From assembly GCA_958295725.1 (NCBI GenBank), contig OY282368.1:1282124-1346123 (forward strand): 64,000 nucleotides of DNA. The letters are read 5' to 3'. The notes below the pieces were generated by a model, which saw only the letters and a program-made list of their open reading frames with translations, was not told the DNA's origin and made no database searches. Shown here in pieces: positions 39,339 to 59,813 of the stretch. This DNA comes from an uncultured Alphaproteobacteria bacterium. Lineage in GTDB: Bacteria; Pseudomonadota; Alphaproteobacteria; UBA2966. The number at the start of each line of letters is the position of its first letter. Position 1 is the first letter of the stretch. A program made the translations under genes and the position numbers.

Positions 39339-39423
39339 GGTTTCCCGTTATTCCCTTGCGATCCGGCGGGGGACGGAGGCGATCGTTCCAGTCTTCCGCC
39401 TCGATTATACACCACGTCGAAAG

Positions 39424-39917
39424 GCGCGGCGTCCGCACAATCCGCACACCCTCCGGGGGTCGAACCCGGCGTGGCGTCCGCACAATCCGCACACCCTTCG
39501 GGGGTCGAGCCCGGCGTGGCGATCCGCACAATCCGCACACTCTCCGGGGGTCGAACCCGGCGTGGCGATCCGCACAATCCGCACACCCTTCGAGGGTCGA
39601 ACCCGGCGCGGCGATCCGCACGATCCGCACACTCTCCGGGGGTCGAACCCGGCGCGGCAATCCGCACGATCCGCACACTCTCCGGGGGTCGAGCCCGGCG
39701 CGGCGATCCGCACGATCCGCACACTCTCCGGGGGTCGAACCCGGCGCGGCGATCCGCACGATCCGCACACCCTCCGGGGGTCGAGCCCGGCGCGGCGATC
39801 CGCACGATCCGCACACCCTTCGCGGGTCGAGCCCGGCGCGGCGATCCGCACGATCCGCACACTCTCCGGGGGTCGAACCCGGCGCGGCGATCCGCACAAT
39901 CCGCACACCGTCGGGCC
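39424..39917. repeat. Tandem array of about 11 direct repeats of a 45-46-bp unit (no spacers)
   Basis: Unit (G)ATCCGCACAATCCGCACA-CCCTCCGGGGGTCGAACCCGG-CGTGGC. It contains an internal ATCCGCACA duplication and the palindrome CCGGG-GGTCGAA-CCCGG. Variant positions are caatcc/cgatcc, ccctcc/cccttc/actctc, gaaccc/gagccc and gcgtgg/gcgcgg. Confidence 0.9.
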
Positions 39918-39961
39918 GCATATTCCCGGAGCGCCAACCCGGCGCGCGACGGATTTTGACC

Positions 39962-41350
39962 TGTCGAGAACATTTTGAGTTGACCGGATTATGTACCAAA
40001 TGGATTGACCGCTTCTGTTGGGGTTGTTGGCCCTGTGGGGAAGTGGTCAGGCGCGGGGCGGCTGTCCACTTGTCCACAGGGCGCCGGCGGGTTGCGTCGA
40101 AGCGGGTCACGCGGCCTTGCGGGTTTGGGTTTCGAGCGGGGTTCCGTCGGCTTGGTAGTGAGCGAGGCGCCTGGGTCCGTGGAAGACGGCGAGGGTGTCG
40201 TCGGGGTACTCGTGCACCCGGACCTTGACCTTGACGTAGTGGTGGCGATGTCGCCCGGCGGGGATCTGCAGGCTGCGTCCCTTGTAGCGCACGGTGTTGT
40301 CGCCTGACACGGTGCGGTCCTCCTGGACGCAGAGGATGTCTTCCAAGGCGCCGGCGAAGGGCACGAAGGCCGAACCCTCGGCCTCGGGCGGGGTCGCGAA
40401 GCGTCTGTTGTGGTCCGGCAGGTAGACCTCCTCGAGGAAGCGGTTGGCCTCGGCCATGTCGGTGATGCCGGCGAGCCTGAGTTCCTGGGGCAGGCGCTTC
40501 TGCACGGTGGCGAACATGCGCTCCGAGCGCCCCCTGGCCTCGGGCGAGTAGGCGGCGATGTGCTCGATGCCGAGTTGGTGAAGCGCGCGACCGACCTGGG
40601 TCGGAGTGTCCTTGTCCACCTTGCCGCCGGCCTCGGGGGTGCGCCAGTAGTGGCTGCCGCGGTCGGTGTAGAGCGAACAGAACAGTCCGCGCTCGCGGAT
40701 CACCTCGCGGAGCGCCCGGAAGCTCGACATGGTGCCCTCCTCGGTGACGAAGAAGGCCGAGTAGACCTCGCTGGTGGCGTCGTCCAGGGTGACGATCAGG
40801 TCCCACTCCCGACCGGGTGCCCACTCATGGCGCGAGCCGTCCTGATGCAGCATCATGCCGGGCAGTGCCCGGCGCGGCCGCTTGCGCCGGTGGGCGCCGC
40901 GCCGGGGCGCCGCGCGCCTGCGGCCATGAGCCTGCAAGGTCAGCCGAACCCAGTTGTAGCTGCGCTTGATGCCGTGCGCGGTGACCAGCTTCTCGTGAAA
41001 ATGCTTGGCGTTGAAGTCCCAGTAGCGGGTGTCGAACAACGCCAGAACCCGCGCCACCTCGTCCACGCCGGCGCGGCGCGCCGAGACCCGGCCCAGACGG
41101 CGGTCGTACAACCCCTCCGCCCCCTCCGCCTCGTAGCGGTCGCGCCAGCGCCGGAAGGTCCGTTCCGAAACACCCAGAACCTCCGCCGCCTCGCCTTGGC
41201 TCAACACACCCCGATGGGTGCGACCGTAAACCTCCTCGAACTTCATCAATCTCAGTCCCTGTCGCTGCTCCGTCCGACGCATCCAGTCCCTCCTTGGCCT
41301 GAATACGTTCTAAAACCGGACAGATCAGTTGGTACATAATCCGGTCATAT
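39962..41350 (-). mobile_element. Insertion sequence (ISNCY/IS481-like) with about 38-bp imperfect terminal inverted repeats
   Basis: IRL TGTCGAGAACATTTTGAGTTGACCGGATTATGTACCAA (39962..). IRR reverse complement GCTGTCGTTAACAGAGGATATGACCGGATTATGTACCAA (..41361). Flanked by the direct repeat GACGGATTTTGACC (39948-39961 and 41364-41377). Confidence 0.75.
40107..41282 (-). CDS. DDE transposase (rve/integrase-core; ISNCY/IS481-like)
   Basis: 391 aa. N-terminal HTH (LSQGEAAEVLGVSERTFRRWRDRYEAEG) and an integrase-core segment with a YTDRGSHY-type motif. Confidence 0.8.
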   Translation of the reverse strand: MRRTEQRQGLRLMKFEEVYGRTHRGVLSQGEAAEVLGVSERTFRRWRDRYEAEGAEGLYDRRLGRVSARRAGVDEVARVLALFDTRYWDFNAKHFHEKLVTAHGIKRSYNWVRLTLQAHGRRRAAPRRGAHRRKRPRRALPGMMLHQDGSRHEWAPGREWDLIVTLDDATSEVYSAFFVTEEGTMSSFRALREVIRERGLFCSLYTDRGSHYWRTPEAGGKVDKDTPTQVGRALHQLGIEHIAAYSPEARGRSERMFATVQKRLPQELRLAGITDMAEANRFLEEVYLPDHNRRFATPPEAEGSAFVPFAGALEDILCVQEDRTVSGDNTVRYKGRSLQIPAGRHRHHYVKVKVRVHEYPDDTLAVFHGPRRLAHYQADGTPLETQTRKAA

Positions 41351-41375
41351 CCTCTGTTAACGACAGCGACGGATT

Positions 41376-41405
41376 TTGACCTTGCGGCGTCGTTCGTGGT
41401 AGGAT
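41376..41405 (+). promoter_or_regulatory. Candidate sigma70-type promoter of SLP gene copy 1 (TTGACC-N18-TAGGAT)
   Basis: The same element with TAGGGT as the -10 is present at 56531-56560 upstream of copy 2. Its position just upstream of the 13-bp repeat tract would put the repeats in the 5' UTR. Confidence 0.3.
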
Positions 41406-41419
41406 AAGGTTGCGAACTT

Positions 41420-41549
41420 CACGGGGCCTCTTCACGGGGCCTCTTCACGGGGCCTCTTCACGGGGCCTCTTCACGGGGCCTCTTCACGGGGCCTCTTCAC
41501 GGGGCCTCTTCACGGGGCCTCTTCACGGGGCCTCTTCACGGGGCCTCTT
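41420..41549 (+). repeat. Simple sequence repeat (CACGGGGCCTCTT)x10 between the putative promoter and the RBS of the SLP gene
   Basis: Exactly 10 perfect 13-bp units. The RBS GGAGG lies 9 nt after the tract and the ATG is at 41573. Confidence 0.9.
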
Positions 41550-41572
41550 CAGGAAGCGGAGGTCCTGTTCCG

Positions 41573-42904
41573 ATGTTCTTCAGCAGTGCTCGTGGATTCG
41601 TCTTGTCGGCGGTGGCGTGCGCCCTCGTTCTCATTCTCTCCGGCTGCGGCGGCGGCGGGAGCAGCAGCGGCACCGCGCCTCCTCCGGGACGGTCGATGGC
41701 GCAACTCGATCCCGAGCCGACGCCGGCACCAACGCCAACGCCGGAGCCGACGCCGCCGGAGACGCTGAGTAATGCGCTGGCTGTTGAAACGATACAGCCG
41801 GGTGCCGTGCTGGGGATCGAGAAGGCCATCGGCGCCGAACCAAAGGCCAGCAGCAGCACGCTGTCTAGCATCACACAGTCTTCGAATACGGACGCTGATG
41901 GTGTCACGACCGACCAAGTGGAGATATTCGCGGAGTACGGAGCCACCACACCCCGTTTTTCGGTGACAAACGGAGCCGAATGGGCCATCGGCATGGATGA
42001 AGGAAATCCCATGGCGATACAGGGCTTCGACCAATCTTGGAAAGGTGCTCAGTTGATCAACACTCATCTCTCCCATATCTCCGGGGGCACCTTGTACGTC
42101 GATGCCTACACGAACATCGAGGCGCCGACGACGGAGAATGTGCCGGGACCTTCCCAAATAGTAAGGAGAGGTGATACAGTAGGCGGTGTCTTCTTTTCCA
42201 TACCGTCCTCCGGAACTCTGAACGGCGAAGATGGCGAGTTTGAGTGTGGCTCTTCTACATGTTCTTTCAACTACCGGCGGGACTTCTCCGGCCGCGGCCC
42301 CGTTACCGATATCTCAGGGACCGTCTTATTCACCCCAGCCTCTACAACGCGCACAGACACCGACTATCTGGCCGGTGGGGTCTGGCTGTTCGTTCCCGAC
42401 ACTGCGTCAAGCACCGACGACTACGTATTCGGCGTCTTTGCGCGCGGCGAGGATCCTTTCAATCAAGGGCGGATCATGGCTCTAACCGGCAGCGCGACGT
42501 ATATGGGGGGCGCCACCGGGAAATATTCGCAAAAGGATGGTAGTTCGACCACCATCGGATCCTTCGAGGCCGACGTTAGCCTGACGGCCAGCTTTGGTGC
42601 TGCCGACAGCCTTGGTACGATCAGCGGTACGATCACCGATTTCGAATTGGACGGTGAGGCGACCGCGGGCAGCTTGACCTTGGGAGAGGCCGCTATCGGC
42701 TCCGCCAACAGCGGCTTCTTCAAGGGTGCGGTGGGCGGCTCGGATGGCTCCCGCACATACGCTGGCAAGTGGGGTGGCCAGTTCTTCGGCAACGGGGCGG
42801 CCAGTACCGACCATCCGGGATCGGTTGCCGGGACGTTCGGCGCACAGTCCACGGACGAGGCTGTGAACTACATCGGCTTTTTCGGCGCGGACCGGGAGCA
42901 GTAA
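41573..42904 (+). CDS. Surface lipoprotein with TbpB/fHbp-like C-terminal beta-barrel (putative Slam/T11SS cargo), copy 1
   Basis: Lipobox LILSGC followed by a Gly/Ser/Pro-rich linker. Handle-domain-like motifs (ATYMGGATGKY, FEADVSLTASFG...LGTISGTI). C-terminal barrel signature YAGKWGGQFFGNGA...GSVAGTFGA...YIGFFGADREQ. Confidence 0.65.
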   Translation: MFFSSARGFVLSAVACALVLILSGCGGGGSSSGTAPPPGRSMAQLDPEPTPAPTPTPEPTPPETLSNALAVETIQPGAVLGIEKAIGAEPKASSSTLSSITQSSNTDADGVTTDQVEIFAEYGATTPRFSVTNGAEWAIGMDEGNPMAIQGFDQSWKGAQLINTHLSHISGGTLYVDAYTNIEAPTTENVPGPSQIVRRGDTVGGVFFSIPSSGTLNGEDGEFECGSSTCSFNYRRDFSGRGPVTDISGTVLFTPASTTRTDTDYLAGGVWLFVPDTASSTDDYVFGVFARGEDPFNQGRIMALTGSATYMGGATGKYSQKDGSSTTIGSFEADVSLTASFGAADSLGTISGTITDFELDGEATAGSLTLGEAAIGSANSGFFKGAVGGSDGSRTYAGKWGGQFFGNGAASTDHPGSVAGTFGAQSTDEAVNYIGFFGADREQ

Positions 42905-42971: not shown

Positions 42972-44327
42972 ATGATGACGATGAAGTGGATCTGCGCCCT
43001 CGCCGTCGCCGTTCTGGTCCACGCTTCGGCGCTCGCCGCTTCCGACCGTTCCCATCTGTCCTCCGACCCCCGGGTCAACGACGCCCGGACACTCATCGAA
43101 AGCGGCCGCTTCGCCGAGGCGCTGGACGTCCTGCGCCCGCTGGCGCCGGACCATCCGGACCGGACGGACGTCCTCTTCCTCCTCGGTCTGGCCGCCGTCG
43201 AGGCCTCCCGGCGGGCCGACACCGGGGAAGCGGAACGGACCGTCCTGCTCGACGAGGCCATCGCCGCGCTCCGCGCCATCCTGATCGATCGGCCGGGTCT
43301 CGTGCGCGTGCGCCTGGAGCTGGCGCGGGCGTTCTTCCTCAAGCGCGAGGACGACCTCTCGCGCGAGCATTTCGAGCGCGTGCTGGCCGGCGGGCCGTCG
43401 CCGGCGATGGTCGCCAACATCCGCCGTTATCTGGCGGAAATGCGGGAGCGCCGGCGTTGGAGCGCCTGGTTCGGCGCGGCGCTGGCGCCGGACAGCAATC
43501 TCAACACGGCCTCGGACTCGGACGTCATCTACATCCGCGGCCTGCCGTTCCGCCGCGGGGCGGACGCGGGCCCCCGCTCGGGGGTGGGCGCCATCCTCTG
43601 GACGGGCGGCGAATACCAGCACCCCCTCGGCCAGCGCCTGCGCCTGCGCGCGGGCGCCGACCTCGCTCGCCGGGAGTATGCCGGAAGCGGCTTCGATCGG
43701 ACCTTTCTGTCCGGGCACGTCGGGCCGCGCTGGCTGGCGGACGCGAAGACCGAGGCGAGCCTGCTCGCCAGCGCCCGGCGCAGCTGGAGAGCCGGGGCGC
43801 CGGAGAGCCATGACCTCGGCGCCCGTCTGGAGGGCGAGCGCCGCTTCTCCCGACGCGTGACGGCGAGCGCGCGAACCTCCCTGCACTGGCGCGAATACCG
43901 GAGCGACCGACGCCTCGACGGGCCGGTTTTCGATCTCTCCCTGGGCGCCGCATGGCTCGCGACGCCGACCGTGCGGTTCGACGCGACGCTCGGCTATGCG
44001 CGTGAACGTCCGGGGCGAACGGTCTGGCGCAATACCAGCCGATGGGCGCGGGCCGGTTTCTCCATGGCGCTGCCGCTGGGCTTCACCGTCGGCGTCGGCG
44101 GTGAGTTGCGCCGGACAAGGTACGAGGGCCGGTCGCCGTACACGCTCGGCGGCGCGTCCCGCGAGGACCGGGTCCGGGTGCTGCGGATCTCGACGTTCAA
44201 TCGGGTCTTCACCCTGTACGGATACAGTCCGCGGCTCGTGCTGGCGAACGAGGCGCGCGACTCCAACGCGCAATTGCACGACTACAAGCGCAATCGCGCC
44301 GAATTGCGATTCGTGCGGCAGTTCTAG
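42972..44327 (+). CDS. Slam (surface lipoprotein assembly modulator)/DUF560 outer-membrane protein, type XI secretion, copy 1
   Basis: Signal peptide. N-terminal TPR-like periplasmic region. DUF560 onset motif RWSAWFGAALAPDSNLN. An alternating beta-strand-rich C-terminal half ending in the aromatic residue (RFVRQF) typical of OM barrels. Confidence 0.7.
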   Translation: MMTMKWICALAVAVLVHASALAASDRSHLSSDPRVNDARTLIESGRFAEALDVLRPLAPDHPDRTDVLFLLGLAAVEASRRADTGEAERTVLLDEAIAALRAILIDRPGLVRVRLELARAFFLKREDDLSREHFERVLAGGPSPAMVANIRRYLAEMRERRRWSAWFGAALAPDSNLNTASDSDVIYIRGLPFRRGADAGPRSGVGAILWTGGEYQHPLGQRLRLRAGADLARREYAGSGFDRTFLSGHVGPRWLADAKTEASLLASARRSWRAGAPESHDLGARLEGERRFSRRVTASARTSLHWREYRSDRRLDGPVFDLSLGAAWLATPTVRFDATLGYARERPGRTVWRNTSRWARAGFSMALPLGFTVGVGGELRRTRYEGRSPYTLGGASREDRVRVLRISTFNRVFTLYGYSPRLVLANEARDSNAQLHDYKRNRAELRFVRQF

Positions 44328-44520
44328 GCTCAGGATTCATAACCGGACCTGCTCATCCGCACGACTCGTCCAGCGACGGGAGTGCCGATCATGGACTTCA
44401 TCGCCGTCGGGTCCATCCATACTCCCCCCTGAAAGGGGGAGGAGTGGCGCACCGGACATTGCCGTCTTGACGATTCCGGTGTCGCGCGGGTGGAATCGCC
44501 GTGGGGTCTCGCTCCCGGTC

Positions 44521-44555
44521 CCCGGCGTGGCGATCCGCACAATCCGCACACCGTC
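44521..44555. repeat. Solitary copy of the terminal variant of the 45-bp repeat unit
   Basis: CCCGGCGTGGCGATCCGCACAATCCGCACACCGTCGG. It matches the last unit of the array at 39424-39917, including the ...CCGTCGG ending. Confidence 0.85.
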
Positions 44556-54579: not shown

Positions 54580-54882
54580 CTACGGAAGCAGCTTGAGCAA
54601 GGCGAAGGTCAAGCCGGCGTTGGCGAGCACGATGCCGACGGCAATCCCGACGAACCGGACGGTCACGCGGGTTTCGAGGGCGGCAAGGTCGGCTTTCGTC
54701 GCCATCTTGTCCTCGATGTGTTCGATCTTGTCTTCAAGGTGGGCGATGTCGGTCTTGGCGGCGACGCCTCCGGTGATGGCGTCGCGAACCGTCGCCACGA
54801 CGCTTTCGGCCTGGCGTTCGTCGAACCCGGCTTCCCGGAGCGCCTTGGCGGCGGCGCAGGTGTCGAAGGCGGTAGCGGTCAT
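54580..54882 (-). CDS. DUF1640-like small coiled-coil/TM protein, tandem paralogue 1 of 5
   Basis: N-terminal MTATAFDTCAAAKALREAGFDERQAE, a central coiled coil, and C-terminal TM GIAVGIVLANAGLTFALLKLLP. Confidence 0.5.
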   Translation of the reverse strand: MTATAFDTCAAAKALREAGFDERQAESVVATVRDAITGGVAAKTDIAHLEDKIEHIEDKMATKADLAALETRVTVRFVGIAVGIVLANAGLTFALLKLLP

Positions 54883-54909
54883 GCGGCGGTTCCCCCGGTC
54901 GGGCGCGGC

Positions 54910-55173
54910 CTACGGAAGCAGCTTGAGCAAGGCGAAGGTCAAGCCGGCGTTGGCGAGAACGATGCCGACGGCAATCCCGACGAACCGGACGGTCATGCGG
55001 GTTTCGAGGGCGGCAATCTCGATCCTGAGGTCAGCTTTGGTCGCCAGTTCGTTCCGGTCGGCGGCAGTGGCGTCGCGCATGACGGCGACGGCGGCTTCGG
55101 CCTGGCGTTCGTCGAACCCGGCTTCCCGAAGGGTCTTGGCGGCGGCGCAGGTGTCGAAGGCGGTAGCGGTCAT
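54910..55173 (-). CDS. DUF1640-like small coiled-coil/TM protein, tandem paralogue 2 of 5
   Basis: Same N- and C-terminal modules with a different central segment. Start trimmed to MTATAF. Confidence 0.5.
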   Translation of the reverse strand: MTATAFDTCAAAKTLREAGFDERQAEAAVAVMRDATAADRNELATKADLRIEIAALETRMTVRFVGIAVGIVLANAGLTFALLKLLP

Positions 55174-55199
55174 GCGGCGGTTCCCCGGTCGGGCGCGGC

Positions 55200-55451
55200 C
55201 TACGGAAGCAGCTTGATGAGCGCGACGACGGCGGCGACGATGGCTCCGGCCTGCATCCACGAGGCGCGGTACATCCGCGCTTCGAGAGCGGCAATCTCGA
55301 TCCTGAGGTCAGCTTTGGTCGCCAGTTCGTTCCGGTCGGCGGCAGTGGCGTCGCGCATGACGGCGACGGCGGCTTCGGCCTGGCGTTCGTCGAACCCGGC
55401 TTCCCGAAGGGTCTTGGCGGCGGCGTAGGTGTCGAAGGCAGTGGCGGTCAT
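55200..55451 (-). CDS. DUF1640-like small coiled-coil/TM protein, tandem paralogue 3 of 5
   Basis: Same N-terminus. The C-terminal TM has diverged (WMQAGAIVAAVVALIKLLP). Confidence 0.5.
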   Translation of the reverse strand: MTATAFDTYAAAKTLREAGFDERQAEAAVAVMRDATAADRNELATKADLRIEIAALEARMYRASWMQAGAIVAAVVALIKLLP

Positions 55452-55506
55452 GCGGCGGTTCCCCGGTCGGGCGCGGCCTACGGAAGCAGCTTGAGGGCGG
55501 CGCCGA

Positions 55507-55758
55507 TCAAGCCGCCGGCGGAAGCAGCTTGAGCAAGGCGAAGGTCAAGCCGGCGTTGGCGAACACGATCCCGATAGCGACCTTGAGCATGTCGGCCTTG
55601 AGATCGGCGAGATCGGCCTTGTCGGCCTTGGTGGCCATCTTGTCTTCAAGGCGGGCGATGTCGGTCTTGGTGGCGACGCCTTCGGCCTGGCGTTCGTCGA
55701 ACCCGGCTTCCCGGAGCGCCTTGGCGGCGGCGCAGGTGTCGAAGGCGGTGGCGGTCAT
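55507..55758 (-). CDS. DUF1640-like small coiled-coil/TM protein, tandem paralogue 4 of 5
   Basis: Same N-terminus and a shortened central region. A 3' duplication scar (LKLLPPAA plus a vestigial repeat at 55490-55520). Confidence 0.45.
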   Translation of the reverse strand: MTATAFDTCAAAKALREAGFDERQAEGVATKTDIARLEDKMATKADKADLADLKADMLKVAIGIVFANAGLTFALLKLLPPAA

Positions 55759-55784
55759 GCGGCGGTTCCCCGGTCGGGCGCGGC

Positions 55785-56024
55785 CTACGGAAGCAGCTTG
55801 AGCAAGCCGACGATGAGCACGGCCTGTCCGGCGGCGACGGCGAAGACGAAGCGGACCAGCCGGGTTTCGAGGTTGGCGAGATCGGCCTTCGTCGCCAGCG
55901 TGTCCCGCTCGGCGGCAGTGGCGTCGCGCATGACGGCGACGGCGGCTTCGGCCTGGCGTTCGTCGAACCCGGCTTCCCGAAGAGTCTTGGCGGCGGCGTA
56001 AGTGTCGAAGGCGGTGGCGGGCAT
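55785..56024 (-). CDS. DUF1640-like small coiled-coil/TM protein, tandem paralogue 5 of 5
   Basis: MPATAFDTYAAAKTLREAGFDERQAE... The track ORF extends to 56090, and the start is uncertain. Confidence 0.45.
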   Translation of the reverse strand: MPATAFDTYAAAKTLREAGFDERQAEAAVAVMRDATAAERDTLATKADLANLETRLVRFVFAVAAGQAVLIVGLLKLLP

Positions 56025-56186
56025 GAAGCGATCATGGGCCATCACGGGTCCTTGCGCAAGTTCCGCACGGTCCCGCAACATCCCGTCCATGCCCGTTTCA
56101 GATTGTTGGCGAAATTGGGGGTGTAATCCGATGTCCAGAAGAAATATCGCATTTTTCTGTGGATTTCAGGACATTTAGCGGCGGAT

Positions 56187-56230
56187 TCCCAATCCGCAGG
56201 CCGGAGGTTCGAATCCCTCCGGGGTCGCCA
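56187..56230 (+). other. tRNA-Gly(CCC)-like 3' fragment (anticodon arm, imperfect T-arm, acceptor 3' strand plus CCA) lacking a 5' half
   Basis: GCGGA-TTCCCAA-TCCGC stem-loop with anticodon CCC. GGTTCGAATCC T-loop. ...GGGGTCGCCA at the end. The upstream 30 nt cannot form the D-arm or acceptor 5' strand. Confidence 0.35.
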
Positions 56231-56574
56231 AGCCTCTCCTTCCAGAAACCCTGGAGAAACAGCGACTTTCACGGAACGAGGCCAAAGAAATTGGCTCGAT
56301 TGGCGAATCGCAGGCATGTCCCGGCCGTGGCGGTCGGACATGGCAGCCTCTCCTATATCCGGGGAACCTGAACCACATGCCGCTCGAATACTGAATGCCG
56401 CTTACAGGTCCTGAGCCTGGCGACACACGACCGCACCGGGCACTCGACGGACATACCCCTGCCGAGTACCTTCACTCGCTCACAGCCAATGAGACCCCAT
56501 CGTCTCATATATCCTGAACCAGGACGAATTTTGACCTTGCGGCGTCGTTCGTGGTAGGGTAGGGTTGCGAACTT

Positions 56575-56605
56575 CACGGGGCCTCTTATCTTCACGGGGC
56601 CTCTT
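56575..56605 (+). repeat. Two copies of the CACGGGGCCTCTT unit (separated by ATCTT) upstream of SLP gene copy 2
   Basis: Same promoter-proximal context as 41420-41549, but 2 units rather than 10. Confidence 0.85.
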
Positions 56606-56628
56606 ATTAAGAAACAGAGAGGTTCCGA

Positions 56629-58164
56629 ATGTCTATCAACGGTACGAGTGGATTCGTCTTGTCGGCGGCGGCGTGCGCGATCGTGCTGTCCGGCTGCGGC
56701 GGCGGCGGCGGCGGCTCGTCGCCGGCGAAAGAGATCGCGGATTTGGCCGAAGGCGGCCGTCTACAGATCATGAAAGCCGCCGGGAACGACCCCGCGCCGA
56801 GCGGCAGCGTGATGCAATCCTCGAATGCGACGGACGGCGTGACGAAGGACAGCATCGGCGTCATGGCAAAGCACGAGAACGGGCAGGTGACGTTCGCCGT
56901 AGACTACGACGACGGCTCCGGGGGAGACCCCGAGATAACGATGGGCACGGCGGACGACCTGCGCGCGAGGTTCTCCGGCGACGTCATTTGCGAACAGTGC
57001 GACGCCAAGCCGTTCAGCGGCAACGCCAGGTGGAACGGCGCCGAACTGCGAAAGTCGTACGGGGACGGAACGTTGTGGGTCGATGTCTACACGGATATCG
57101 AGAAACCGACGACGGAGACGGTGACGACCGGCGGCGACGCTCCTCAAACCGGCGATGGCACCCGGGATGTTCCTACCGGGACGCGGATATCGTTTACGCA
57201 ATTCATCGGAGGCCGCGTCGACATCGATAGGCCAGGTGGGTTTAGCACTCTTGGGACACTGGATGGCGCTATGGGTACGTTCACGTGCCCGTCGAGTTGT
57301 GTTGTCAGTAACCACATCGTGGCAGGGGGGAGTTGGACCTTCACCCCCACCCGGCCGCCGGGAGCCCTTGACGTTCTAAGCAACGCGGCCGGCGTCGTCC
57401 TTACAGGGAACTTCGATGAGACTCGAACTGACGGCACCTTCAACGGCGCGGCGGGATACTTCAAATGCCTGTCCCGGTTGACGGGAAGTTGCGGTCGTGG
57501 CGTATCGAACGGCCGCACTACGCTCAGTGGCGAGTGGGTATTCATTCCCACCACCCCCACGCCAGCAGGTACGACGACGACACGCACCGTACAGGATGCC
57601 GACTATCTGGCCGGCGGAGTCTGGTTGTACGTTCCGGAGAGCGGCGACGCTTATCAGTTCGGCGCCTTCGTAGACGGCGGCCAGCCCTTTCTCCAGAGCC
57701 GTATCGAGGGCCTGACGGGCACCGCGAAGTATGCAGGAGACGCGACCGGTATCTACGTGGAAAAGGAATCCTCCACCGCCGCCGCCGAGATCGGATATTT
57801 CGACGCGGAGGTGACGTTGACGGCCGACTTCGGCACGAATGCCGAGCTGGGAACGATCCGTGGAGTCATCGATAACTTCGTCGAGGAGTCGACCGACGAG
57901 GCCATTGTCGGGGATCCGGAGGTGACGCTGCGGCAGGCTGACATCGGGTCCGCGGACAGCGGTTTCTTCAAGGGCAAGACGACGGCAACCCTCTCCGGCA
58001 GAGAGTTCACCGGCAAATGGGGTGGCCAGTTCTACGGCAACGGCGCCACCGCCACCGCCCACCCCGGTTCCGTCGCCGGCACGTTCGGCGGCGCGGCGCC
58101 GGAGAACGCCGACGACGGTTACGAAGCCTCGTTCGTAGGGGCGTACGGGGCCTACAAACAGTAA
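56629..58164 (+). CDS. Surface lipoprotein with TbpB/fHbp-like C-terminal beta-barrel (putative Slam/T11SS cargo), copy 2
   Basis: Lipobox VLSGC plus a Gly-rich linker. Its central region differs from copy 1. Conserved handle motifs (AKYAGDATGIY, FDAEVTLTADFG...LGTIRGVI) and C-terminal barrel (FTGKWGGQFYGNGA...GSVAGTFGG...FVGAYGAYKQ). Confidence 0.65.
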   Translation: MSINGTSGFVLSAAACAIVLSGCGGGGGGSSPAKEIADLAEGGRLQIMKAAGNDPAPSGSVMQSSNATDGVTKDSIGVMAKHENGQVTFAVDYDDGSGGDPEITMGTADDLRARFSGDVICEQCDAKPFSGNARWNGAELRKSYGDGTLWVDVYTDIEKPTTETVTTGGDAPQTGDGTRDVPTGTRISFTQFIGGRVDIDRPGGFSTLGTLDGAMGTFTCPSSCVVSNHIVAGGSWTFTPTRPPGALDVLSNAAGVVLTGNFDETRTDGTFNGAAGYFKCLSRLTGSCGRGVSNGRTTLSGEWVFIPTTPTPAGTTTTRTVQDADYLAGGVWLYVPESGDAYQFGAFVDGGQPFLQSRIEGLTGTAKYAGDATGIYVEKESSTAAAEIGYFDAEVTLTADFGTNAELGTIRGVIDNFVEESTDEAIVGDPEVTLRQADIGSADSGFFKGKTTATLSGREFTGKWGGQFYGNGATATAHPGSVAGTFGGAAPENADDGYEASFVGAYGAYKQ

Positions 58165-58204: not shown

Positions 58205-59578
58205 ATGCCTTCTTTTTCGTTCGCGCCCCGGCTGTTCGGCGCGCTCGCCGCCGTCCTGTTCCTTCTCCCGGTCCTCGCGACCGTCGCGGCTTCCGACCGT
58301 TCCCACCTGTCCTCCGACCCCCGGGTCAACGACGCCCGGACACTCATCGAAAGCGGCCGCTTCGCCGAGGCGCTGGACGTCCTGCGCCCGCTGGCGCCGG
58401 ACCATCCGGACCGGACGGACGTCCTCTTCCTCCTCGGTCTGGCCGCCGTCGAGGCCTCCCGGCGGGCCGACACCGGGGAAGCGGAACGAACCGTCCTGCT
58501 CGACGAGGCCATCGCCGCGCTCCGCGCCATCCTGATCGATCGGCCGGGTCTCGTGCGCGTGCGCCTGGAGCTGGCGCGGGCGTTCTTCCTCAAGCGCGAG
58601 GACGACCTCTCGCGCGAGCATTTCGAGCGCGTGCTGGCCGGCGGGCCGTCGCCGGCGATGGTCGCCAACATCCGCCGTTATCTGGCGGAAATGCGGGAGC
58701 GCCGGCGTTGGAGCGCCTGGTTCGGCGCGGCGCTGGCGCCGGACAGCAATCTCAACACGGCCTCGGACTCGGACGTCATCTACATCCGCGGTCTGCCGTT
58801 CCGCCGCGGGGCGGACGCGGGCCCCCGCTCGGGGGTGGGCGCCATCCTCTGGACGGGCGGCGAATACCAGCACCCCCTCGGCCAGCGCCTGCGCCTGCGC
58901 GCGGGCGCCGACCTCGCTCGCCGGGAGTATGCCGGAAGCGGCTTCGATCGGACCTTTCTGTCCGGGCACGTCGGGCCGCGCTGGCTGGCGGACGCGAAGA
59001 CCGAGGCGAGCCTGCTCGCCAGCGCCCGGCGCAGCTGGAGAGCCGGGGCGCCGGAGAGCCATGACCTCGGCGCCCGTCTGGAGGGCGAGCGCCGCTTCTC
59101 CCGACGCGTGACGGCGAGCGCGCGAACCTCCCTGCACTGGCGCGAATACCGGAGCGACCGACGCCTCGACGGGCCGGTTTTCGATCTCTCCCTGGGCGCC
59201 GCATGGCTCGCGACGCCGACCGTGCGGTTCGATGCGACGCTCGGCTATGCGCGTGAACGCCCGGGGCGAACGGTCTGGCGCAATACCAGCCGATGGGCGC
59301 GGGCCGGTTTCTCCATGGCGCTGCCGCTGGGCTTCACCGTCGGCGTCGGCGGTGAATTGCGCCGGACAGGGTACGAGGGCCGGTCGCCGTACACGCTCGG
59401 CGGCGCGTCCCGCGAGGACCGGGTCCGGGTGCTGCGGATCTCGACGTTCAATCGGGTCTTCACCCTGTACGGATACAGTCCGCGGCTCGTGCTGGCGAAC
59501 GAGGCGCGCGACTCCAACGCGCAACTGCACGACTACAAGCGCAACCGCGCCGAATTGCGATTCGTGCGGCAGTTCTAG
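58205..59578 (+). CDS. Slam/DUF560 outer-membrane protein, type XI secretion, copy 2
   Basis: Mature region essentially identical to copy 1. Only the signal peptide and a few residues differ. Confidence 0.7.
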   Translation: MPSFSFAPRLFGALAAVLFLLPVLATVAASDRSHLSSDPRVNDARTLIESGRFAEALDVLRPLAPDHPDRTDVLFLLGLAAVEASRRADTGEAERTVLLDEAIAALRAILIDRPGLVRVRLELARAFFLKREDDLSREHFERVLAGGPSPAMVANIRRYLAEMRERRRWSAWFGAALAPDSNLNTASDSDVIYIRGLPFRRGADAGPRSGVGAILWTGGEYQHPLGQRLRLRAGADLARREYAGSGFDRTFLSGHVGPRWLADAKTEASLLASARRSWRAGAPESHDLGARLEGERRFSRRVTASARTSLHWREYRSDRRLDGPVFDLSLGAAWLATPTVRFDATLGYARERPGRTVWRNTSRWARAGFSMALPLGFTVGVGGELRRTGYEGRSPYTLGGASREDRVRVLRISTFNRVFTLYGYSPRLVLANEARDSNAQLHDYKRNRAELRFVRQF

Positions 59579-59813
59579 GCTCAGGACTCATAACCGGACC
59601 TGCTCATCCGCAAGACTCGTCCAGCGACGGGAGTGCCGATCATGGACTTCATCGCCGTCGGGTCCATCCATACTCCCCCCCTGAAAGGGGAAGAAGTGGC
59701 GCACCGGACATTGCCGTCTTGACGATTCCGGTGTCGCGCGGGTGGAATCGCCGTGGGGTCTCGCTCCCGGTCCCCGATGCGGCGACCCGGCGGGAGGCCG
59801 GAAGGAGGGACGG

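Follow-up and report, generated by a model that had tools for sequence, protein, structure and literature searches.

The window analysed here, a 64,000-nucleotide stretch of the genome of an uncultured alphaproteobacterium (contig OY282368.1), carries ten perfect head-to-tail copies of the 13-bp unit CACGGGGCCTCTT at positions 41420-41549, in front of a lipoprotein gene that is followed by a Slam gene. Judging from the sequence, the tract is more likely to act at the RNA level, the units being complementary both to the ribosome-binding site (RBS) and to neighbouring units. We propose, with about even confidence, that the tract is a hypermutable cis-acting RNA leader in which the number of units, and above all the parity of this number, sets how firmly the RBS is held. 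The tract belongs to a family that is dispersed over multiple genomes, a fact overlooked in the earlier note that had described the tract from the sequence alone.

The ten units reported in that note were confirmed by Tandem Repeats Finder (TRF; 41417-41551, period 13, 10.4 copies, 100% matches, score 270), and the number of unit matches observed in the window was reached in none of 100 shuffles. A search of the window for the unit with up to two mismatches returned the ten units of this locus (copy 1), two cores at a paralogous locus (copy 2), one unrelated site and nothing else. Upstream of the copy-1 array lies a σ70-like site composed of TTGACC (41376-41381), an 18-nt spacer and a TG-extended TAGGAT (41400-41405). 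It was the single site found by a promoter scan, against 0.1 expected in shuffles, and it ends 14 nt 5' of the first unit, so that on sequence grounds transcription is likely to start at about 41410-41415, directly 5' of the array. Downstream follow GGAGG at 41558-41562 and the ATG at 41573. The tract is therefore located, as had been stated before, between a promoter-like -10 and the RBS of the lipoprotein/Slam operon, and it is predicted to form the 5' end of the mRNA leader. The elements of the two leaders are as follows.

41376-41405, plus strand: promoter-like site of copy 1 (-35 TTGACC, 18-nt spacer, TG-extended -10 TAGGAT), from the promoter scan
41420-41549, plus strand: ten-unit array of CACGGGGCCTCTT, from TRF, shuffles and the sense-strand fold
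41558-41567, plus strand: RBS region of copy 1, GGAGGTCCTG, comprising the Shine-Dalgarno (SD) sequence and a pyrimidine tail; it pairs with unit positions CGGGGCCUCU, two of the pairs being G.U
56531-56560, plus strand: homologue of the promoter-like site at copy 2 (TTGACC ... TAGGGT), from the alignment with copy 1
56575-56605, plus strand: copy-2 tract, two cores with an extra 5 nt between them, an 18-bp duplication (CTTCACGGGGCCTCTTAT x2)
56617-56627, plus strand: RBS region of copy 2, GAGAGGTTCCG, of which 11 contiguous positions pair with the unit; two pairs in the GAGGUUCCG core are G.U

The leaders of the two copies are homologous from about 41366 and 56520, respectively, as far as the repeat. 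The promoter-like site of copy 2 was missed by the simple scan because it has a G at position 4 of the -10 element. The earlier note had counted two units at copy 2, and two cores are indeed present (56575-56587 and 56593-56605); their register differs, being 18 bp rather than 13, and copy 2 is therefore not simply a two-unit form of the copy-1 tract.

Other readings of the array were discarded. A coding function or a leader peptide was rejected on the grounds that the unit contains no ATG, GTG or TTG in any frame, that 13 is not a multiple of 3, and that a strong SD and a signal peptide are encoded 3' of the array. CRISPR arrays and repetitive extragenic palindromes or bacterial interspersed mosaic elements do not fit units that adjoin head-to-tail with no spacers and invariably precede a gene in a single orientation.

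The number of units is highly variable. Four pairs of orthologous loci with near-identical flanks were reached through members of protein clusters, and in all four the unit number was unequal.

Window copy 2 and L002: 2 and 7 units
L003 and L057: 13 and 22 units
L010 and L060: 23 and 19 units
L028 and L062: 11 and 9 units

L002 is a metagenome contig that shares 98-99% identity with the window across 11.8 kb and is syntenic with the copy-2 locus. Since unit number is unequal in all four pairs, the tracts must be regarded as hypermutable. Paralogues within one genome differ too, with for example 32, 35 and 9 units. The arrays systematically break short-read assemblies 5' of these surface-protein genes: three short-read scaffolds of an orthologous autotransporter locus (L058, L059, L061) stop inside the array, 49-78 nt before the start codon. 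Comparison of related genomes thus bears out the hypervariable length that the earlier note had expected of a phase-variation switch, and the orthologous pairs take the place of the copy-number contrast between the two paralogues of the window, which had been offered as evidence of slippage. The part of that idea which is not supported is the classical route, because a tract located downstream of the -10 cannot act via promoter spacing or reading frame.

About 58 loci, from at least 15 proteobacterial metagenome-assembled genomes (MAGs) or metagenomes, carry arrays of the 13-mer with 2-35 units, always in the same position and orientation. This family was ascertained by exact match to two consecutive units, a search that yielded 50 stretches in GTDB species-representative genomes plus four metagenome contigs; the degenerate form of the array pattern is (NNNGGGGCCTCNN)n. 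The MAGs concerned are eleven Alphaproteobacteria, one member of the Rhodospirillales, one gammaproteobacterium and two Paracoccaceae, and two of the four metagenome contigs (LXNI01) derive from marine-sponge metagenomes (PMC5099237). At least 13 arrays are found in one genome of 3.55 Mb. A collection of viral contigs gave no match to the array, which is therefore not phage-borne in that collection, and a 28-nt promoter pattern had no match in the representative genomes.

The architecture of the leaders is recurrent. They open with a -35/-10-like site, of which the TAnnnT, mostly TG-extended, begins 14-24 nt upstream of the array in 50 of 56 distinct flanks. The arrays begin 8-18 nt 3' of the -10-like hexamer, separated from it by a few nucleotides ending in CTT, and in all but one genome (OZ241752) 13-34 nt with a strong SD lie between the end of the array and the start codon. 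A leader with a single unit exists in at least one case (L045, position 661). The units are uniform, with 19 of 577 deviating, and in 17 of these 19 the change affects positions 1-3 or 12-13, i.e. the predicted loop. The 13-mer, loop included, is identical across classes despite unrelated promoters and downstream proteins that are about 25% identical.

Most of the genes behind the arrays code for probable exported proteins. Of 55 downstream open reading frames (ORFs), 51 have a signal-peptide-like N-terminus and 37 have a lipobox, compared with 72 of 376 signal-peptide-like N-termini in a crude control set of ORFs from the same loci (Fisher p=3e-27). BLAST sorts the array-linked proteins into at least six unrelated clusters, with Pfam matches to Autotransporter, TbpB_B_D, FHBP_C, YadA head and anchor, and collagen-like repeats. 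The closest homologue of the window's lipoproteins outside the species (P0002, 80% identity, locus L001) is preceded by an unrelated leader without the repeat; the repeat leader is thus not simply inherited along with that gene family.

Two loci or groups of loci depart from the common pattern. In MAG OZ241752 (L008, L013, L029, L030, L033, L034, L036, L038, L039) two units, or three at L013, are followed by a leader of about 80 nt that contains unit-like and complement-like elements (AGAGGCCUC-GUAA-GAGGUCUCU, and GGAGGCUCCCC ... GGGGGUCCUCC just 5' of the AUG); this elaborate variant precedes lipoprotein paralogues. At L012 (7161-7405) an array of the variant unit CGCGGGGCCTCTT, which has an A to G change in the predicted loop, comprises 19 cores, one unit being shortened. 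It precedes an ORF of 65 amino acids whose start resembles autotransporter paralogues, and the gene behind this array is probably disrupted.

The case for an RNA function is built on pairing. The unit core consists of 8 nt, GGGGCCUC, and pairs with the core of another unit around a UUCAC loop, two of the eight pairs being G.U. This self-complementarity is limited to the sense RNA, as the complementary strand cannot self-pair. The sense fold of the copy-1 leader has an energy of -85.5 kcal/mol (z=-4.1, equalled in 0 of 200 shuffles) and forms five two-unit hairpins, in contrast to z=-0.9 for the antisense fold. Of the two possibilities that the earlier note had raised for the G-runs, a structured 5' untranslated region (UTR) or a G-quadruplex (G4), the latter is not favoured: the GGGG runs are separated by 9-nt loops, which exceed the classical limit of 1-7 nt, and with G4 formation enabled in ViennaRNA the minimum-energy fold of 4, 5 and 10 units consisted of hairpins throughout, with no G4.

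The units are also matched to the RBS. A typical RBS region of the family, GGAGGYCCYG, is the complement of the unit, and at least nine contiguous Watson-Crick or G.U pairs between unit and RBS are possible in 77% of 48 array-linked RBS regions; among 364 other ORF starts with an SD from these loci the proportion is 11% (p=2e-16). This contiguous-helix measure was used instead of RNAduplex energies, which discriminated poorly in the 68% G+C background (-18.3 vs -15.2). In a MAFFT alignment that was not fitted to structure, 93.7% of cells are paired in the 10-bp helix formed by the last unit and the RBS, a value that drops to 70%, 57-59% and 43-45% when the partner is slid by 1, 2 and 3 columns, respectively. 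RNAalifold recovered only four G:Y pairs from this alignment, and the full helix was then counted explicitly. Seven helix pairs vary one-sidedly, always GC<->GU or UA<->UG; RBS changes opposite the core comprise 58 pair-keeping transitions, 7 pair-breaking transitions and 19 transversions, a count with some register bias. With an invariant unit, two-sided covariation is absent. Overall, the prediction is a series of unit-unit hairpins of 8 bp each, together with a single helix between unit and RBS and without a long duplex. An Rfam search gave nothing at gathering score, the best E-values of 0.2-8 belonging to unrelated microRNA and small RNA (sRNA) models.

According to the folds, the cost of opening the RBS depends on whether the number of units is odd or even.

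Copy-2-type leader: no units 6.1, odd 13.0, even 7.4 kcal/mol
Copy-1 leader: no units 10.2, odd about 12.3, even about 9.6 kcal/mol
Mean of 34 distinct native leaders: no units 8.6, odd 14.2, even 10.5 kcal/mol

The predicted cost is higher for odd than for even numbers in 31 of the 34 native leaders. Among the three that deviate, L045 and L052 carry an additional half-unit (GCGGCCTCTT) in the sequence flanking the array on its 5' side; their native numbers are even and their predicted parity is reversed. A single unit is predicted to give 14.0 kcal/mol, compared with the odd-number mean of 14.2, and native copy 2 (two units, 5-nt spacer) 8.8 kcal/mol. Structure and opening cost are predicted to level off by about four units and to depend on parity alone thereafter. 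Among 44 complete arrays of simple architecture, 33 have an odd and 11 an even number of units (binomial p=0.0013), and the odd excess is present in several genomes.

Taking these data together, we envisage that transcription from the promoter directly upstream would place the array at the 5' end of the lipoprotein/Slam mRNA. The core of each unit would pair with that of its neighbour and, more strongly, with the RBS region GGAGGYCCYG, and the leader would fold as a row of two-unit hairpins. With an odd number, the leftover unit would sequester the SD sequence; with an even number, the RBS would be held far less tightly. Gain or loss of units by slipped-strand mispairing would alter the number heritably and thereby reset translation of the surface protein, a change by one unit having the largest predicted effect. 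As each unit can pair with the RBS, copy number probably sets the amount of protein. On this model copies 1 and 2 of the window would be in the leakier state and the L002 allele, with seven units, in the tight one. We infer that the array is transcribed, that pairing would lower translation in vivo and that cells of a population switch often and reversibly.

In a stronger form, which we regard as speculative and rather improbable, the leaders would be digital switches that read parity, single-unit slippage toggling surface-protein genes between tight and leaky whatever the length of the array. Dozens of leaders per genome, with a common unit and RBS type, could then cross-talk in trans, and long arrays might titrate RBSs or a common factor. 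If this were true, sponge symbionts would possess a genome-wide stochastic programme for the surface coat that has spread between bacterial classes.

Several points weigh against parity-dependent control of the RBS. At equilibrium the even-number state is merely leakier on the model and not open: in the copy-1 context the predicted probability that the SD is unpaired is 0.10 for even and 0.02 for odd numbers, and the odd-even difference in opening cost amounts to only about 2.7 kcal/mol. Both tracts of the window have an even number of units (10 in copy 1; 2, with a spacer, in copy 2), i.e. they are in the rarer, leaky state on the model. The parity test is post hoc, having been conceived from the folds, and it was applied to loci that are partly paralogous and ascertained by the exact two-unit match. 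Compensatory change was sought in the alignment of the unit-RBS helix, and no pair had changed on both sides, so that the variation which speaks for the helix is one-sided (wobble) throughout. Some of the comparator contigs come from long-read assemblies of low coverage (5.7x-13x), and errors in their unit counts are possible. Finally, the pairing model alone leaves unexplained why the 13-mer, loop included, is identical in Alpha- and Gammaproteobacteria.

An alternative that we consider unlikely is a rheostat graded by length, in which the structure of the transcribed repeat alters processing or stability of the mRNA (e.g. via RNase III or RNase E) or the repeat simply lengthens the leader, parity being irrelevant. 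There is a precedent in Haemophilus influenzae, where ATCTTTC repeats 5' of hmw1A form a hairpin cut by RNase III and expression is inverse to repeat number (PMC12721329). The continuous range of 2 to 35 units, the concentration of long arrays in some protein families and the possibility that predicted 5'-terminal hairpins stabilise the mRNA would all suit such a mechanism, whereas the saturation of predicted structure and opening cost by about four units, after which parity alone matters, would not. Moreover, the hairpins comprise only 8 bp, which is short for RNase III, and an excess of odd numbers is unexpected under a pure length effect. Less probable still is the view that a single anti-SD unit is functional as a repressor hairpin and that all further copies are neutral by-products of slippage. 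It accounts for the near-full sequestration predicted for one unit, for the existence of a one-unit leader at L045 and for the perfect homogeneity of the units, as expected from recent slippage. Under neutrality, however, the 33:11 odd excess requires selection or slippage in steps of two units, and the orthologous loci differ by 9, 4, 5 and 2 units, such that steps are not confined to even sizes. The persistence of arrays of 20-35 units in several genomes and protein families, and the retention of the same architecture across bacterial classes with unrelated promoters, likewise argue against it.

We attach little probability, and certainly no more than to neutral expansion, to a role of the unit as a platform for an RNA-binding protein or sRNA that reads the unit or the UUCAC-loop hairpin and controls a regulon, unit number setting sensitivity or titration. 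Such a factor would explain why the 13-mer is more conserved, loop included, than self-pairing needs; the presence of at least 13 arrays in one genome is compatible with a regulon, and TAACTGA arrays, proposed to bind a post-transcriptional regulator, offer a precedent (PMC4679880). No candidate factor was identified, however, the anti-unit sequence was sought elsewhere in the window without being found, and both RBS complementarity and the parity effect can be explained without a factor. Very improbable in our view is an element acting at the level of DNA, in which a G4 or hairpin of the G-runs in the non-template strand blocks RNA polymerase or stimulates recombination of cassettes, as in antigenic variation of the pilE type. 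Each unit does contain GGGG, four or more units meet a relaxed G4 rule, the cassettes of the window are mosaic in a manner compatible with gene conversion, and G4-forming heptamer repeats are known from Xanthomonas and Nostoc (PMC4692102). Yet the loop length and the all-hairpin RNA fold described above disfavour a G4, the restriction to C/U variation opposite the G-run in the RBS region is specific to sense-strand pairing, and most array-bearing loci are not paired paralogous cassettes.

The system closest to the proposed RNA leader is the heptanucleotide repeat (ATCTTTC)n in the 5'-UTR of hmw1A and hmw2A of H. influenzae (PMC12721329; PMC8262952), which is transcribed into a hairpin cleaved by RNase III and lowers expression as repeat number rises (PMC12721329). 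Shared features are a multi-copy tandem repeat between promoter and start codon of a gene for a surface protein (an adhesin in the case of hmw), a copy number that varies between strains and in hmw tunes expression, and a proposed logic that involves transcription of the leader and RNA secondary structure, here predicted. The sequences are unrelated, CACGGGGCCTCTT having 13 nt as opposed to the 7 nt of ATCTTTC. The hmw repeats pair with a separate G-rich arm downstream to form one long hairpin, whereas the units described here are predicted to pair with each other and with the RBS. Furthermore, the hmw effect is graded by length and confined to two loci of one species, in contrast to the parity effect predicted here and to the dozens of loci in many genomes at which the unit occurs.

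Leaders with anti-SD elements include RNA thermometers such as ROSE, fourU and the 8-bp repeat thermometer of Neisseria meningitidis cssA, in which a short tandem duplication in the leader alters thermometer behaviour. As in these, an upstream leader segment complementary to the SD is predicted to limit initiation. Unlike in the ROSE or fourU type, the anti-SD element is iterated 2-35 times and self-complementary, with no match to an Rfam family, and in contrast to thermometers there is no evidence of temperature sensing for the array.

Dispersal of identical short direct repeats over many intergenic sites 5' of start codons in distant lineages is known from the TAACTGA heptamer arrays of Beggiatoaceae, Cyanobacteria and Bacteroidetes (PMC4679880). 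In both systems such dispersal suggests horizontal spread or a shared post-transcriptional regulator. For TAACTGA, no functional pattern of downstream genes and no self- or RBS-complementarity was reported, and canonical RBSs are rare (PMC4679880). The unit described here is a different one, and the genes behind it code almost exclusively for exported or surface proteins and have strong SDs complementary to the unit.

With classical simple sequence repeat (SSR) contingency loci, as in Neisseria, Haemophilus, Moraxella and Bartonella, including the AGAT repeats in the 5'-UTR of uspA2 (PMC5320596, PMC11466379), the arrays share hypermutable tracts at genes for autotransporters, trimeric adhesins and Slam-dependent lipoproteins, and differences between close strains. 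They differ from these in the location of the tract, which is outside both the -35/-10 spacer and the ORF, in their long unit (13 nt) and in their hosts, which are uncultured, probably sponge-associated symbionts rather than vertebrate pathogens. A literature search for the unit or its complement found no match, and no prior description of a repeat unit that is both self-complementary and anti-RBS was found in the literature and Rfam searched. The family is apparently undescribed and, given that neither Rfam nor the literature yielded a match, we file it as a variant of the 5'-leader repeat contingency loci, a kind of locus to which, judging from its sequence, the array would belong.

Repeat-driven contingency loci are textbook knowledge for a handful of vertebrate pathogens. 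The present arrays, attached to the same classes of surface proteins, would extend this logic to Alpha- and Gammaproteobacteria that have not been cultured and that derive in part from marine sponges. If the proposal is correct, symbionts would vary their surface coat stochastically, with consequences for host recognition, phagocytosis and phage evasion in sponges. It would also provide a compact, programmable translational switch, and it entails a sharp, cheap and falsifiable prediction, namely a saw-tooth of expression between odd and even unit numbers. Finally, it would explain why short-read metagenomes break directly before surface-protein genes and bias gene catalogues accordingly.

At both loci of the window a Slam gene is located immediately 3' of the lipoprotein gene.

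41573-42904, plus strand: lipoprotein gene 1 (443 amino acids; signal peptide, LSGC lipobox, Gly-rich linker; weak TbpB_B_D-like C-terminal barrel)
42972-44327, plus strand: Slam protein 1 (SlipAM/DUF560, type 11 secretion, outer membrane; PF04575 E=9.3e-16, full-length, plus TPR)
56629-58164, plus strand: lipoprotein gene 2 (511 amino acids; PF01298 E=0.018, residues 363-509)
58205-59578, plus strand: Slam protein 2 (PF04575 E=3.4e-15, full-length)

The signal peptides of both cargo proteins contain the lipobox cysteine (...LILSGC GGGG... and ...IVLSGC GGGG...). PF01298 spans the whole C-terminal domain of both lipoproteins, at E-values below threshold significance (E=0.15 for residues 304-441 of the first, E=0.018 for the second). 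The two belong to the largest BLAST cluster of array-linked proteins, in which relatives match the TbpB barrel significantly (E=1e-15 to 6e-22). The cassettes are mosaic (43033-44537 vs 58284-59789): identity reaches 98.7% over 1.5 kb in the Slam genes and about 90% in the leaders, and the lipoprotein ORFs in between show no match at the nucleotide level, their protein products sharing 46% identity. Such a pattern is compatible with gene conversion or with replacement of a cassette.

The surroundings of copy 2 include, just 5' of the locus (54805-56025), a 278-bp unit repeated 4.3 times with 74% matches, which corresponds to a series of short ORFs on the minus strand (about 83-100 amino acids each) with weak CCDC90-like matches in the orthologous contig. 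About 300 bp upstream of the copy-2 promoter, positions 56203-56230 resemble the 3' half of a tRNA (T-arm GGTTCGAATCC, acceptor strand, CCA). ARAGORN and Rfam detected no tRNA gene in the window, including at this site, which may be the remnant of an integration site.

Upstream of copy 1, an insertion sequence (IS) of the ISNCY family occupies 39963-41365, with its transposase gene at 40107-41282 on the minus strand (NF033594 E=2e-108). On either side of the IS stands one copy of the 17-bp direct duplication GCGACGGATTTTGACCT (39946-39962 and 41366-41382). This sequence contains the greater part of the -35 hexamer, so that the IS inserted into the copy-1 promoter, which was restored by the duplication; the sequence originally 5' of the -35 has been moved 1.4 kb away. 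A second tandem array is located between an acyl-CoA dehydrogenase gene and the IS (39423-39909; 46-bp unit x 10.6, 93% matches) and lay about 40 bp upstream of the copy-1 promoter before the IS inserted. An 18-bp fragment of its unit recurs at 44533-44550, directly after the first Slam gene.

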